Positions 37,601 through 44,057 of a DNA stretch of 51,014 nucleotides are shown here, in pieces. The notes beneath the pieces were generated by a model, which saw only the letters and a list, made by a program, of their open reading frames with translations, ran no database searches and was not told the DNA's origin. How positions within the stretch are numbered: position 1 is the first letter of the stretch; each line of letters opens with the position of its first letter. This DNA is from Escherichia phage tiwna. Both the position numbers and the translations under genes were made by a program. The stretch lies in sequence record NC_054896.1; one strand, written 5' to 3'.

Positions 37601-38716
37601 ATGAAAAATGTAAAAATTACAGATGAGCAATTCAAGATCGAACGGGCGGCAGGTAAGACATATAAACAGATCGCTCAAGAGTACGGAATGAATGTGAGAA
37701 GCGTCGAGCGTCGCGCGGCGCGTCTTGCAAAGCAAGGACAGTTATCGACCATCGGAGCGCCTGGTTTTGGTGTTCATGGTGAGTCAGTAATGACTGACAA
37801 AGAAGGAAATATAATCCTCAAGTGGACCAAAACCAGCAAGGATAAAGAGCAATTAGAGGCATTGATGCGCGCAGCAATGGAGGCATTTAGCGAGGAAGTG
37901 CCGCGATTAGATCCAGTTCCATTGCAGGAGCGTAACTATAATGAAACGCTTTCATTGTATCCGATCTTTGACATGCACTTAGGAGCTATGGCCCATAAGC
38001 ACGAATGCGGCGAAAATTGGGATACTGCGACGGCAGAGCGCGTTATGAATAACTTTATCGACTATGCTTTGATGTGCGCACCGGACAGCGAAAAGGCTGT
38101 TATCCTGATTGGTGGCGATATGCTGCATAGCGACGGCCTGGAGGCGGTGACACCTGCAAGCGGTCACGTACTTGATCAAGATAGCCGATATGCAAAATTG
38201 GTTTACGTTGCAATCCGTGCAATGCGTCGCGCAATTAATAAAATGCTGTTAAAGCATAAACATGTTGAGGTCCAGATCGTAGAGGGGAATCACGACCAAT
38301 CAGGAATGATTTGGCTACGCGCAGCAATGGCGGCAGCATATGAGAACGAGCCGCGCGTTTACGTTGATGTTTCTCCTCGCGTTGTTCACCACACGCAATA
38401 CGGAAAAACTTTCCTTGCGTACCATCACGGGCACACAGTGCGTAAACCGGAGACTTTGCTAATGATGTGCGCGTCAGATTGGCGGGAGGACTTCGGAAAC
38501 TCAAAAACGATGTATGCGCACGTAGGGCACTGGCATCACCAGACCGTGACAGAAACGTCGCTTGGCATCGTGGAGGTGCATAGCACCCTGGCGGCAAAAG
38601 ACGCATACGCCGCGCGAGGTGGCTGGAGATCTCGACGCCGTGCAGCGGTTATCATTTACGACAAAGAGCATGGAGAAGTCGGGCGATTTGTTCACTATCC
38701 AGAAATGATGAATTGA
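37601..38716 (+). CDS. calcineurin-like metallophosphoesterase with N-terminal HTH-like segment
   Basis: Motifs DMH, GGDMLH, GNHD, HHGH and GHWHH in canonical order; N-terminal KTYKQIAQEYGMNVRSVERRAARL; start could instead be upstream at 37451. Confidence 0.5.
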   Translation: MKNVKITDEQFKIERAAGKTYKQIAQEYGMNVRSVERRAARLAKQGQLSTIGAPGFGVHGESVMTDKEGNIILKWTKTSKDKEQLEALMRAAMEAFSEEVPRLDPVPLQERNYNETLSLYPIFDMHLGAMAHKHECGENWDTATAERVMNNFIDYALMCAPDSEKAVILIGGDMLHSDGLEAVTPASGHVLDQDSRYAKLVYVAIRAMRRAINKMLLKHKHVEVQIVEGNHDQSGMIWLRAAMAAAYENEPRVYVDVSPRVVHHTQYGKTFLAYHHGHTVRKPETLLMMCASDWREDFGNSKTMYAHVGHWHHQTVTETSLGIVEVHSTLAAKDAYAARGGWRSRRRAAVIIYDKEHGEVGRFVHYPEMMN

Positions 38717-38762
38717 TGAATTTTTATTTAAATCAATGACAAATTAAATCAAAAACTTGCAA

Positions 38763-38791
38763 AGGGGCGGCGTTTGTCGCCTCTTTTTTTT
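38763..38791 (+). terminator. rho-independent terminator
   Basis: Imperfect hairpin ggggcggcg...cgcctc followed by T8. Confidence 0.5.
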
Positions 38792-38861
38792 GTTTAATTC
38801 TTTATCATGTGCGTTTATCATGCGGTCAATATATTGACTTTAATTAATATGGAGAATAAAA

Positions 38862-39077
38862 ATGAAAGATTTTATTAACGCAGCTACCGCCGGATCTGGC
38901 GGTTCATCTATCGCAAGCGCCGCTACAGGGCAGTTAACCATTGCTATTGCCAGCTTTGTTTTAATGGCTGCATTCGGTGCATGGGGCGCTTACCTTCGCT
39001 GGCGTGATAGTAAAAAATTCCACGAGGCGATCGAAAAAGGTGATATTCAAAAAGCTATTGAGATCAGGGGCAAGTAA
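38862..39077 (+). CDS. holin (possibly pinholin-type)
   Basis: 71 aa with a Gly/Ala/Ser-rich first hydrophobic segment, a second TM and charged C-terminus; immediately upstream of the endolysin. Confidence 0.6.
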
Positions 39078-39568
39078 TGAGCATAAAGAACAGGGTAGCG
39101 GCTGCGGCCTTTGGCGTTGCGGTTGCCTTGACTTCTCCACTTCTTGAAGAGATCGAAGGGGTAAGATACAAGCCATACAAAGATATTGCGGGGGTATGGA
39201 CGGTTTGCGCAGGAATCACCGGACCCGATGTTATCCTGGGGAAAACGTACACTAAAAAAGAGTGTGATGCTTTGTTGGCTAAGCATATCCAGGTTGCTAA
39301 AAAGGAAGTTGACAAGCAAGTTAAGGTTGACATTCCTGATAGTATGCGTGCAGCAATGTACTCATTCACTTACAATGCAGGTGTGGGAGCTTTCAGAAAT
39401 TCAACAATGCTGAAACTCATCAATCAGGGGAAATTAAAAGATGCTTGCGATCAGCTTTATCGTTGGACGTATTACCATAACCCCAAAACAGGAAAGCGCG
39501 AGAAGTCTAAAGGCTTACTTAACAGGCGCAAGGTCGAACACAAATATTGCACAATGGATCTGAAATGA
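39077..39568 (+). CDS. SAR endolysin (lysozyme, E-x8-D-x5-T type)
   Basis: N-terminal weakly hydrophobic [12 protein letters not shown] signal-anchor-release-like segment followed by a catalytic E..D..T spacing ([16 protein letters not shown]). Confidence 0.7.
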
Positions 39569-39960
39569 TGAAGAAATTTTTACTTACACCAATCGCAATG
39601 GCGGTGATCTTGTCTGGATGTTCAAGCGTTACGCCACTGACCGGATTAATCGGCAGTAAGCCGGAAATCACAGCACAGGCTGGCGCGGAGAACGTGAAGC
39701 AGACAGTTGGCATTACAGAAAAGCATGACGCCAGCACAAAACAGAAAACCACAATAAAGGAATCTGCGGTTGACAAGGTTGACACGTCCAGCAAGAAGGA
39801 TTTCACAACATCAACCATTCAGGCCAATACCATCAAGGCAGACAAAATTCAGGTCGTGCAGGGTAATAACGGCAGATGGTACGATCCAATAATCATATGC
39901 GTGGTTGTGTTAATTGTGCTGATTTGTCTTTACTGGAGAGAAAAGAAAAAGGAGGCTTAA
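39565..39960 (+). CDS. unimolecular spanin (lipoprotein with C-terminal TMD)
   Basis: Lipobox ILSGC at the N-terminus and C-terminal [18 protein letters not shown], as in the T1-type u-spanin; the track start is TTG, real ATG at 39565. Confidence 0.6.
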
Positions 39961-39976
39961 TGCCTCCTTTATTTTT
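39945..39976. terminator. bidirectional terminator
   Basis: Hairpin aggaggcttaatgcctcct with flanking A- and T-runs, overlapping the spanin stop. Confidence 0.55.
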
Positions 39977-40199
39977 ATGCGTCGGGCCACATATGAGTTT
40001 CGTTTGTTGGCTTGTTCGATTCTTCGTACTGCCTTACTTCAATGCTGCAAGTGTCGCCGTACAGTTCTGCAATCTTGCGCTCATTTTCAACAGCCGATTG
40101 CTCACTCCATCCAAAATCCCTGTCATAAATTGTCGGGATTTCAGCAGAAGATCCGTTGTCATGATTATATACGCGAACTACTAAAAACTTGCTGGACAT
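39975..40199 (-). CDS. hypothetical protein (74 aa)
   Basis: First gene downstream of the minus-strand promoter module at 40236-40279. Confidence 0.45.
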   Translation of the reverse strand: MSSKFLVVRVYNHDNGSSAEIPTIYDRDFGWSEQSAVENERKIAELYGDTCSIEVRQYEESNKPTNETHMWPDA

Positions 40200-43832: not shown

Positions 43833-44057
43833 TCAAAACGGAAAACAGCGCGGACAACTAGGATCGAAATCGCATCCACAATCATTAACAATCATATTGG
43901 GATCTGCAAATATTGCGCTTGATTCAAGATCCATATCCATATCACCTAAAGCCTCATCAAGAGTCTTAATTTTATATGCCACTTCAAGCGCCGCCTCTTT
44001 ATTTAGTCCGGCATCTTCTGCCATTTGAAGGCGCTCAAAAAAACCGTCCTGACTCAT
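43833..44057 (-). CDS. hypothetical protein with Cys-rich C-terminus (74 aa)
   Basis: C-terminal CGCDFDPSCPRC; acidic N-terminal half. Confidence 0.45.
   Translation of the reverse strand: MSQDGFFERLQMAEDAGLNKEAALEVAYKIKTLDEALGDMDMDLESSAIFADPNMIVNDCGCDFDPSCPRCFPF

Follow-up and report, generated by a model that had tools for sequence, protein, structure and literature searches.

The interval 38862–39960 of the genome of Escherichia phage tiwna (NC_054896.1; the whole stretch of 51,014 nucleotides that was analysed is referred to below as the window) raises the question of whether three short genes lying head to tail form a lysis cassette and, if so, by which of the known routes the phage opens its host. 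An earlier sequence-only reading had proposed a combination of a pinholin-like holin, an endolysin with a signal-anchor-release (SAR) segment and a unimolecular spanin (u-spanin). The cassette as such is borne out, since all three genes carry the features expected at 38862–39960 and match their families with E-values from 3.8e-32 to 9.3e-55. We consider it very probable that the three genes make up the lysis cassette of a T1-like coliphage and that the window is a Warwickvirus-type genome of the Drexlerviridae. The point that invites discussion is the kind of holin involved.

Layout and Boundaries of the Cassette

The elements of the locus are as follows:

38761–38786, + strand: intrinsic-terminator-like hairpin whose 11-bp stem has 6 GC pairs, with a T-run after it
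38851–38854, + strand: ribosome-binding site GGAG of the holin gene, 7 nt upstream of the ATG, read directly from the sequence
38862–39077, + strand: holin gene, 71 aa, T1 gp13 family (assigned by PHROG 2877 and identity to T1 gp13)
39077–39568, + strand: SAR-type endolysin gene, 163 aa, GH24/T4-lysozyme-like muramidase (assigned by PF00959, 3HDE and T1 gp12)
39155–39157, 39182–39184 and 39200–39202, + strand: codons of the endolysin catalytic residues E27, D36 and T42
39565–39960, + strand: unimolecular spanin gene, 131 aa, T1 gp11 family (assigned by PHROG 1804, T1 gp11, the lipobox and the transmembrane domain)
39948–39970, either strand: bidirectional terminator-like hairpin with a 9-bp stem and a T-run on each strand

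The gene structure, the homologies and the sequence motifs are matters of direct observation. Three tightly coupled plus-strand genes are flanked by two terminators. The first hairpin terminates the unit of the upstream DNA-repair exonuclease and is the 5′ boundary of the cassette, while the second, which overlaps the u-spanin stop codon, is its 3′ boundary and separates it from the converging minus-strand genes. The holin stop codon and the endolysin start share the sequence TAATG, and the endolysin stop and the u-spanin start share ATGA; because the stop and start codons overlap in this manner, translational coupling of the three genes is probable. The u-spanin frame could be extended upstream to a TTG at 39547, and the start annotated in a relative is the equivalent of 39565. 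A promoter scan returned three promoter-like sites against 3.1 expected from shuffled sequence, that is, no excess over chance, and late transcription of the cassette is assumed here.

Relatives among the T1-Like Phages

Over its full length the cassette DNA is 98–99% identical to that of Warwickvirus coliphages (Drexlerviridae), and about 59 sequenced coliphages, Warwickvirus members among them, are at least 95% identical over it. FritzSarasin (Bas04, MZ501069; Warwickvirus, Drexlerviridae/Tempevirinae), vB_Eco_Sip, tonijn and tonnikala contain the same ORFs with scattered point differences only, and in FritzSarasin the same genes are annotated as holin, endolysin and u-spanin. The remainder of the window is 96–98% identical to the Warwickvirus phages atuna, tonnikala and vB_Eco_Sip, and it is this similarity along the whole window that establishes the T1-like assignment. 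The lysis genes had been offered as support for that assignment, which is justified in part. The third gene is indeed homologous to T1 gp11; however, u-spanins of the gp11 type also occur in 43-kb Klebsiella phages, which have a different gene order and lie outside the Drexlerviridae, so the presence of such a protein supports the assignment without being diagnostic of it.

The cassette of T1 itself (NC_005833, 42878–43982) has the same order, with gene 13 for the holin, gene 12 for the endolysin and gene 11 for the u-spanin, and the same stop/start overlaps. The proteins have nearly equal lengths (71 and 71, 163 and 162, and 131 and 133 aa in tiwna and T1, respectively) and are 55% (gp13), 65% (gp12) and 44% (gp11) identical, with an identical LSGC lipobox in the spanin and the same E-x8-D-x5-T triad in the endolysin. 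A C-terminal holin motif, [RK]-[WY]-R-D-S-K, reads KYRDSK in T1 and RWRDSK in tiwna. The position in the genome is also the same, with a DNA-repair exonuclease ahead of the cassette and, behind it, a terminator and the converging helicase-side genes, the T1 terminator at 43966–43988 occupying the place of the hairpin 39948–39970. T1 belongs to Tunavirinae/Tunavirus, whereas the nearest relatives of the window are Tempevirinae/Warwickvirus. In T1 a terminator is annotated after the exonuclease gene as well, and between it and the lysis cassette, ahead of the holin gene, stand an HNH gene (ST15) and a small SH3 gene (ST14), both of which are missing here: a tblastn search of the window gave no ST14 or ST15 homologue (E > 2). 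An SH3 protein has been reported beside the lysis cassettes of Drexlerviridae (PMC13164509). The transmembrane segment of the tiwna u-spanin, finally, is wholly unlike that of T1 gp11 in sequence.

The Endolysin

The second gene had been read as a SAR endolysin with an E-x8-D-x5-T active site, and both parts of this reading hold. Residues 1–23 (39077–39145) form the SAR-like segment, in which K4 and R6 precede an uncharged stretch of 17 residues, V7–L23, rich in Ala, Gly and Val, with a mean Kyte–Doolittle (KD) hydropathy of 2.01 and nine residues that are A, G, S or T. The catalytic triad E27-x8-D36-x5-T42 matches the pattern exactly and is the counterpart of E35-x8-D44-x5-T50 in RrrD/R21. 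The protein matches Pfam PF00959 (Phage_lysozyme) at 5e-39 and the PHROG endolysin family at 9.3e-55. With the crystallised SAR endolysin R21 (PDB 3HDE) it aligns at 3.5e-48 from residue 2 onward (query 2–159 to chain 4–161), so that residues 2–23 fall on chain residues 4–25. R21 of phage 21/DLP12 (RrrD; 3HDE, 3HDF, 4ZPU) is thus a true homologue whose alignment begins in the SAR domain and runs through to the C-terminus, with the same triad; the difference is that the linker behind the SAR domain is six residues shorter in the tiwna enzyme than in R21. Cysteines are found only at positions 44, 63, 123 and 158; since there is none in residues 1–23, control by disulfide caging of the P1 Lyz type is excluded. 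On the evidence of its sequence, and in agreement with the view taken by others, the enzyme is a predicted R21-type SAR endolysin; T1 gp12 and TLS gp68 are likewise predicted SAR endolysins (PMC11447400).

The segment might instead be a cleavable Sec signal peptide, in which case the enzyme would be soluble, secreted and controlled by some other means. The shortness of the uncharged stretch would fit such a peptide, and A15-V16-A17, an AXA-like motif downstream of the basic n-region formed by K4 and R6, could in principle serve as a signal-peptidase site. T1 gp12, however, keeps the segment without an AVA motif at that place, and the residue-for-residue alignment is with an R21 SAR domain still present in the 3HDE crystal structure. 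Ala, Gly, Ser and Thr make up about half of the segment, a composition shared with known SAR domains, the published predictions for T1 gp12 and TLS gp68 point the same way, and a muramidase secreted constitutively in active form would be expected to lyse the cell prematurely. A cleavable signal peptide is therefore very improbable in our judgement, and the SAR endolysin remains the preferred reading; its function in tiwna is carried over from the literature on R21 and is to be understood as predicted.

The Unimolecular Spanin

The third gene had been described as encoding one protein with both a lipobox and a transmembrane domain (TMD) at its C-terminus, and so a u-spanin, and this description proved accurate. 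A signal peptide with the lipobox LSGC occupies residues 1–19 (39565–39621), the codon of Cys19 lying at 39619–39621; within the first 21 residues an 11-residue PROSITE-type lipobox match places the modified position at Cys19, with Ser at +2. The signal opens with a basic n-region, a hydrophobic h-region comes next, and the +2 position is free of Asp, as expected of an outer-membrane lipoprotein. Residues 20–107 constitute the periplasmic domain. The strongest hydrophobic window of the protein, residues 108–124 (39886–39936; KD 3.05, summed dG −2.9), is the TMD, and it is followed by a predicted cytoplasmic tail, REKKKEA. The lipobox and the C-terminal TMD with its basic tail are both kept in 119 of the 120 homologues retrieved, the single exception being an N-terminal fragment; the lipobox is spelled LSGC in 114 of the 120, and Ser is found at +2 in 118.

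The family assignment is equally consistent. The protein matches the Rz-like spanin family PHROG 1804 at 1.7e-46 over residues 6–130 and T1 gp11 over 126 of its 131 residues (44% identity, E 1e-35), and through this last alignment it falls within the T1 gp11 family under the grouping rule of Kongari et al. 2018 (SpaninDB; PMC6139136), which asks for 40% identity or more across 40% or more of the length. Its closest matches are in P0027 (98% identical) and vB_Eco_Sip (98.5%). In the gp11 family the periplasmic domain is predicted to consist mainly of beta strands and has no periplasmic Cys (PMC6139136). The tiwna protein has no periplasmic Cys, and neither has any of the 120 homologues. An AF2 model gives a confident transmembrane helix at 108–129 (pLDDT up to 89) and, apart from this TMD and the signal peptide, no structure, residues 20–107 being devoid of secondary structure, with pLDDT below 50 over most of 20–79 and block means of 41–53 for residues 21–100; beta strands are not recovered at such confidence. 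T1 gene 11 complements the lysis defect of lambda RzRz1, and gp11 is the tested prototype of the u-spanins (PMC6139136), from which the function of the tiwna protein is taken by analogy.

The single-gene nature of the spanin depends on there being no o-spanin gene embedded in the locus. A scan of six frames with all starts over 38700–40100 revealed no second lipobox on the plus strand inside the cassette outside the u-spanin frame, nor did the plus strand of the cassette contain an i-spanin-like ORF. Since no other plus-strand ORF of the cassette has a lipobox, an embedded o-spanin, the finding that would have told against the sequence-only reading, is absent.

An antisense ORF at 39519–39818 that contains a LASC motif was rejected as a gene, having no PHROG or Pfam match and being unannotated in the relatives. 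T1, too, is open in this antisense frame, and a scarcity of Tyr and His codons there is the probable reason.

Could the third gene encode a lipoprotein of another kind, either a Cor-like superinfection exclusion protein or the o-spanin of a pair whose i-spanin lies at a distance? It is labelled just "lipoprotein" in several relatives, residues 2–60 weakly match the Cor superinfection exclusion protein in PHROG (2.4e-05), and there are weak NCBIfam lipoprotein matches. These matches, however, do not reach beyond the signal peptide and the N-terminal stretch of the periplasmic region next to it and fall far below the curated cut-offs, while the Rz-like spanin match is far stronger and extends over nearly the whole protein. 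The Cor protein of T1 is encoded separately, at ST30. The conservation of the C-terminal TMD and basic tail, the complementation of RzRz1 by the T1 homologue and the results of the plus-strand scan all speak against a non-spanin lipoprotein or a lone o-spanin as well, and we regard either as extremely unlikely. The gene is accordingly read as that of a u-spanin. As u-spanins were found in 58 of the 677 phages surveyed (PMC6139136), it is fair to call this lysis architecture less common, as the sequence-only reading did.

Two-component systems provide a useful contrast. Lambda Rz/Rz1 has the same role of linking the inner and outer membranes and the same place as the last element of the lysis cassette, but in tiwna both anchors are carried by one polypeptide, an o-spanin gene is lacking, whether embedded, overlapped or separate, and the periplasmic domain has no Cys and no helix predicted by AF2. 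Phage 21 also differs in this respect, its spanin being of the two-component type (rzpD follows rrrD in DLP12).

The Holin and the Pinholin Question

A pinholin, of which S21 68 of phage 21 is the prototype, is characterised by two TMDs, the first a weakly hydrophobic SAR-type domain that exits the membrane, and by holes of about 2 nm, too small for the release of a cytoplasmic endolysin. The tiwna holin had been called pinholin-like and had been credited with a first TMD rich in Gly and Ala. The composition is as described: residues 4–23 (38871–38930) are nearly all Ala, Gly, Ser or Thr. Insertion of this segment into the membrane is less evident, as it is only weakly hydrophobic. Hydropathy was computed on the Kyte–Doolittle scale and on the position-independent Hessa biological scale; on these measures residues 4–20 have a KD of 0.72 and a summed dG of 7.2 kcal/mol, which is very weakly hydrophobic. 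The sole clearly hydrophobic segment begins with residues 25–41 (mean KD 2.03), and the corresponding TMD, residues 25–47 (38934–39002), contains the conserved FGxWGAY. The two segments are separated by a linker of three residues, TGQ, and the C-terminal tail is highly charged.

As to its relations, the holin matches PHROG 2877 (holin) at 3.8e-32 across positions 1–71 of 71, and its alignment with T1 gp13 is gap-free. The conserved positions of the family (F4, A8, T9, G14, A20, Q24, A28, F38, G39, G42, A43 and Y44) include a number in the first segment, which is conserved in sequence across the T1 gp13 family. This family is narrow: clustering at 50% identity leaves it eight representatives in a set of 1.84 billion proteins. 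Homology to the phage 21 pinholin was considered and rejected: BLASTP against EssD of DLP12 gave no alignment, hhalign between the holin family and EssD returned a probability of 0.2%, and no match to PF04971 (P21 holin S family) appeared at E ≤ 10, where the control EssD scored 2e-35 and the Pfam scan of the holin yielded only a sub-threshold match to DUF3262. A dual-start holin/antiholin motif is likewise absent, the N-terminus MKDFINAAT having a single Met and no second in-frame start nearby; such a motif is not universal among holins. The term pinholin-like refers to the architecture and the SAR endolysin next door and does not extend to a relationship with S21 or to a dual start. On comparison of their sequences, the two holins are alike in architecture only and are not homologues.

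There is nevertheless a likeness in architecture. S21 (EssD) has the same length of 71 aa, a weak first and a strong second hydrophobic segment and a charged tail, and the gene that adjoins and overlaps the tiwna holin encodes a homologue of R21, the endolysin of the same phage. In the literature, the holins of T1 and TLS have been proposed to be class II pinholins (PMC11447400), all but two members of the T1 gp11 family are found in cassettes with a pinholin and a SAR endolysin (PMC6139136), and T1-family cassettes have already been described as a pinholin, a SAR endolysin and a u-spanin (PMC6139136, PMC11447400, PMC13164509). We infer the pinholin label for tiwna from this architecture, and it is the weakest part of our reading of the cassette; hole size and holin topology are matters of inference throughout.

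The main alternative is that the holin is not a pinholin and either spans the membrane once, with the N-terminus out and the C-terminus in, or makes large holes, the cassette being otherwise the same. In that case, the conserved Gly/Ala/Ser-rich N-terminus would be periplasmic from the start, and depolarisation by the holin would still release the SAR endolysin. Such a topology accords with the T1 RefSeq record, which states that gp13 "contains single transmembrane domain", with residues 25–41 alone being clearly hydrophobic while the first segment scores about +7 in summed dG, with the shortness of the linker, and with the lack of both S21-family homology and a dual start. On the same measures, however, the proven SAR-type TMD1 region of EssD is equally weakly hydrophobic (KD 0.48, summed dG 6.5). 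The AF2 model (pLDDT 53–87) shows one continuous helix over residues 2–58 with no hairpin, but its confidence is low precisely in the region of the first segment (pLDDT 53–54 for residues 1–20). The match to S21 in length and overall layout, the partnership with a SAR endolysin and the classification of T1-family holins as pinholins in the phage-lysis literature favour the pinholin. Both topologies, moreover, converge on the same active form, with the N-terminus out and one TMD in the membrane. On balance a holin that is not a pinholin seems unlikely, though it deserves to be taken seriously, and a pinholin-type protein remains our preferred reading.

A bolder version of the single-pass topology would make the T1-type holins a class of their own, distinct from pinholins in the sense of S21. 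It is suggested by the family being small, isolated in sequence and unconnected with S21, and under it the Gly/Ala/Ser/Thr-rich N-terminal segment could be a timing or gating element, either periplasmic or interfacial. We think this rather improbable; if it were true, the published label of class II pinholin would be wrong for all T1-like phages.

Proposed Lysis Pathway and Its Meaning

With a pinholin-type holin, the sequence of events in tiwna may be pictured as follows. The cassette would probably be expressed late and its three genes translated in a coupled manner. The endolysin would be exported by Sec by means of its N-terminal SAR segment and would accumulate tethered to the inner membrane as an inactive protein, while the holin would build up in the inner membrane, trigger at a set time and collapse the proton-motive force. 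Most likely it would form small holes with its second TMD, the weak N-terminal segment leaving the bilayer or staying outside it. Upon depolarisation the SAR endolysin would be released, would refold as R21 does and would cleave the peptidoglycan. The u-spanin is presumed to be held by a lipid anchor at Cys19 in the outer membrane, to which the Ser at +2 would direct it through Lol sorting, and by its C-terminal TMD in the inner membrane; when no longer confined by the murein mesh, it would fuse or disrupt the two membranes and so complete lysis.

Seen as a whole, the cassette is an ordinary and already known one, and dozens of sequenced phages carry nearly identical genes that are annotated. 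It matters mainly for correct annotation and marks the window as a complete, conventional lytic phage of the T1-like type (Drexlerviridae), whose architecture of pinholin-type holin, SAR endolysin and u-spanin was defined on T1 and is now on record for dozens of near-identical genomes.

Lysis genes and their surroundings

The three-gene lysis cassette that the sequence-only reading had recognised in phage tiwna is confirmed as an observation, and its interpretation is supported. The cassette is already known and well catalogued, many public genomes having it with nearly every base the same, and the module of phage T1 has been described in the same terms (TLS paper PMC11447400; KanT1 paper PMC13164509). 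The ORF listing places three plus-strand, co-directional ORFs within window 38862-39960.

Features of the lysis cassette and its surroundings (window coordinates)
Upstream of the cassette: DNA-repair exonuclease gene (PHROG 704, 7e-149)
38717-38861: exonuclease-holin gap, 145 nt, with the terminator as its sole content
38761-38786, 5' side of the cassette: terminator-like hairpin
7 nt upstream of the holin ATG, plus: GGAG
38862-39077, plus: holin gene, 71 aa
39077-39568, plus: endolysin gene, 163 aa; its ATG overlaps the holin stop (TAATG)
39565-39960, plus: u-spanin gene, 131 aa from the first ATG; its ATG overlaps the endolysin stop (ATGA)
39948-39970: bidirectional terminator-like hairpin overlapping the u-spanin stop codon
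39975-40792, minus: three small converging genes past the bidirectional terminator, 74, 64 and 131 aa (PHROGs 27210, 9539, 2794)

The u-spanin start at 39565 is the equivalent of the start annotated in a relative, while the mechanical ORF list instead reaches a TTG at 39547. The PHROG matches of the converging genes are all of unknown function, and these genes have no Pfam domain; a 526-aa helicase-like gene comes after them.

The u-spanin

The third protein matches PHROG 1804, "Rz-like spanin" (1.7e-46, residues 6-130), and carries both anchors that had been claimed for it. Its N-terminal 19 residues fit a PROSITE-type lipobox ending in Cys19, and a Ser follows at position +2. Since Ser at +2 of a lipoprotein directs it to the outer membrane (the +2 rule), the u-spanin is predicted to be sorted there. 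The most hydrophobic window (residues 108-124, mean Kyte-Doolittle hydropathy, KD, 3.05) is followed by REKKKEA, so that by the positive-inside rule the C-terminus is predicted to be cytoplasmic. In the AlphaFold2 model residues 108-129 form a helix (pLDDT up to 89) and the periplasmic part is unstructured, with pLDDT <50 for most of residues 20-79; the periplasmic domain rich in beta structure that has been reported for this family is thus not reproduced in this low-confidence part.

Both anchors are general among the 120 retrieved homologues: the lipobox occurs in 119, the exception being an N-terminal fragment, the hydrophobic C-terminal window likewise in 119, and Ser at +2 in 118. None of the 120 has a Cys between the anchors, and u-spanins are described as lacking periplasmic Cys (PMC6139136). 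The periplasmic domain is strongly conserved, whereas the TMD sequence switches abruptly even among close relatives: tblastn matches about 85% identical end at residue 108, where the TMD begins (residues 108-124, window 39886-39936). This abrupt change suggests that the anchor may be freely exchangeable or acquired by recombination.

That the third gene encodes a lipoprotein other than a spanin is highly improbable; the weak matches to Cor and to lipoproteins that might speak for it reach no further than the signal peptide and the N-terminal portion of the periplasmic domain next to it. T1 gene 11, which complements the lambda RzRz1 defect, is the prototype u-spanin (Kongari et al. 2018, PMC6139136). 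In the same survey u-spanins were found in 58 of 677 phages, and all but two members of the T1 gp11 family are accompanied in their cassettes by a pinholin and a SAR endolysin.

A separate embedded o-spanin gene, which would contradict the single-protein architecture, was looked for by a six-frame lipobox scan, and no other start with a lipobox candidate was found on the plus strand of the cassette. A 99-aa antisense ORF within the u-spanin gene (39519-39818, minus) has a lipobox-like LASC motif; it was rejected as a gene, having no PHROG or Pfam match and being unannotated in relatives. T1 gene 11 likewise has this antisense frame open over 85 codons, probably owing to a scarcity of Tyr and His codons in the sense frame.

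The endolysin

The endolysin matches Pfam Phage_lysozyme (5e-39), and its nearest solved relative is the full-length SAR endolysin R21 of phage 21 (3HDE, E 3.5e-48). Residues 2-159 align with residues 4-161 of the 3HDE chain, with a 6-residue deletion in the linker, so that the alignment pairs the N-terminal segment, too, with the SAR domain of R21. Both the SAR-like segment and the proposed triad, E27-x8-D36-x5-T42, were recovered. An uncharged stretch of 17 residues follows K4 and R6; its KD of 2.01 is comparable to the 2.29 of its counterpart in RrrD/R21. Because of an A-V-A motif at residues 15-17 this segment might be a cleavable signal peptide, but that is highly unlikely. The SAR endolysin R21 is regulated by refolding and P1 Lyz by a disulfide; as residues 1-23 contain no Cys, the tiwna endolysin would be regulated like R21 and unlike P1 Lyz.

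The holin

The holin matches PHROG 2877, "holin", over its full length (3.8e-32); its homologues in public records carry the precomputed Pfam accession PF27028 (window 38862-39077). The claim of a Gly/Ala-rich first TM holds for composition, with A/G/S/T in 16 of the 20 residues 4-23, but the segment has low hydrophobicity (KD 0.72; about +7.2 for the summed dG on a position-independent scale). Almost the same values are obtained for the equivalent segment of EssD (KD 0.48, +6.5), the homologue in DLP12 of the phage 21 pinholin, whose TMD1 is the proven SAR-type domain. Within the holin family, which is narrow (8 clusters among 1.84 billion representatives in a full HMMER scan), the sequence of the first segment is conserved. 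Further features are a clear TMD that starts at residue 25, a conserved 14-residue junction and a charged tail. AlphaFold2 models residues 2-58 as one continuous helix, with low confidence over the first 20 residues.

Sequence kinship with the phage 21 pinholin family was ruled out: BLASTP gave no alignment, hhalign a probability of 0.2%, and PF04971, matched by EssD at 2e-35, was not matched at E<=10. The dual-start motif is absent. The T1 record calls gp13, the T1 holin, a single-TMD protein, and a single-pass or large-hole holin is a possible, though rather unlikely, reading of the tiwna protein. Later literature calls gp13 a class II pinholin (PMC11447400), and "pinholin-like" appears a reasonable architectural description as well as the literature's working label.

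Relation to T1-like phages

Across its entire length, the DNA of the cassette shows 98-99% identity to that of many sequenced coliphages, among them vB_Eco_Sip, NorthRox, tonijn and FritzSarasin (Drexlerviridae; Tempevirinae; Warwickvirus), the last annotating holin, endolysin and u-spanin for the same three genes. The window halves show 96-98% identity, across 87-99% of their length, to phages that include atuna, tonnikala and vB_Eco_Sip. Judged by these identities, the window is a Warwickvirus-type T1-like phage genome.

In T1 (NC_005833) genes 13, 12 and 11 stand in the same order after an exonuclease gene, with an annotated terminator at the end, and their products are 55%, 65% and 44% identical to the tiwna holin, endolysin and u-spanin. 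Unlike tiwna, T1 has an HNH gene (ST15) and a small SH3/DUF7244 gene (ST14) between exonuclease and holin; tblastn found homologues of neither anywhere in the window (E>2). The small SH3 protein encoded ahead of the holin is an accessory that is widespread but not universal (KanT1 paper, PMC13164509), and a 2026 paper proposes that in many Drexlerviridae it has an accessory role in lysis.

The cassette supports the T1-like assignment, but the u-spanin is not diagnostic by itself. The gp11 family is not confined to T1-like siphophages, since 43-kb Klebsiella phages, e.g. the 43.5-kb Putnam (PQ358941, 2504-3735), have u-spanins about 43% identical; there the order is u-spanin, holin, endolysin, beside the terminase genes. 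The T1-type enterobacterial cassette is also found in about 20 phage records that bear the label Campylobacter jejuni, e.g. MG065670 (Campylobacter phage A121, 47.6 kb), with u-spanins up to 85% identical and DNA in the 60-90% identity band; such a host seems strange for a genome of Drexlerviridae-like type.

Proposed course of lysis

The overlaps suggest co-transcription and translational coupling of the three genes. The endolysin would be exported uncleaved and, by homology to R21, remain tethered via its SAR segment, while the holin would build up until it triggers and the membrane potential collapses. The endolysin, whose release would depend on the loss of PMF, would then refold as R21 does and cleave the murein. 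Once the murein mesh no longer holds it, the u-spanin, with an anchor in each membrane, may fuse or disrupt the two, as T1 gp11 leads us to expect.
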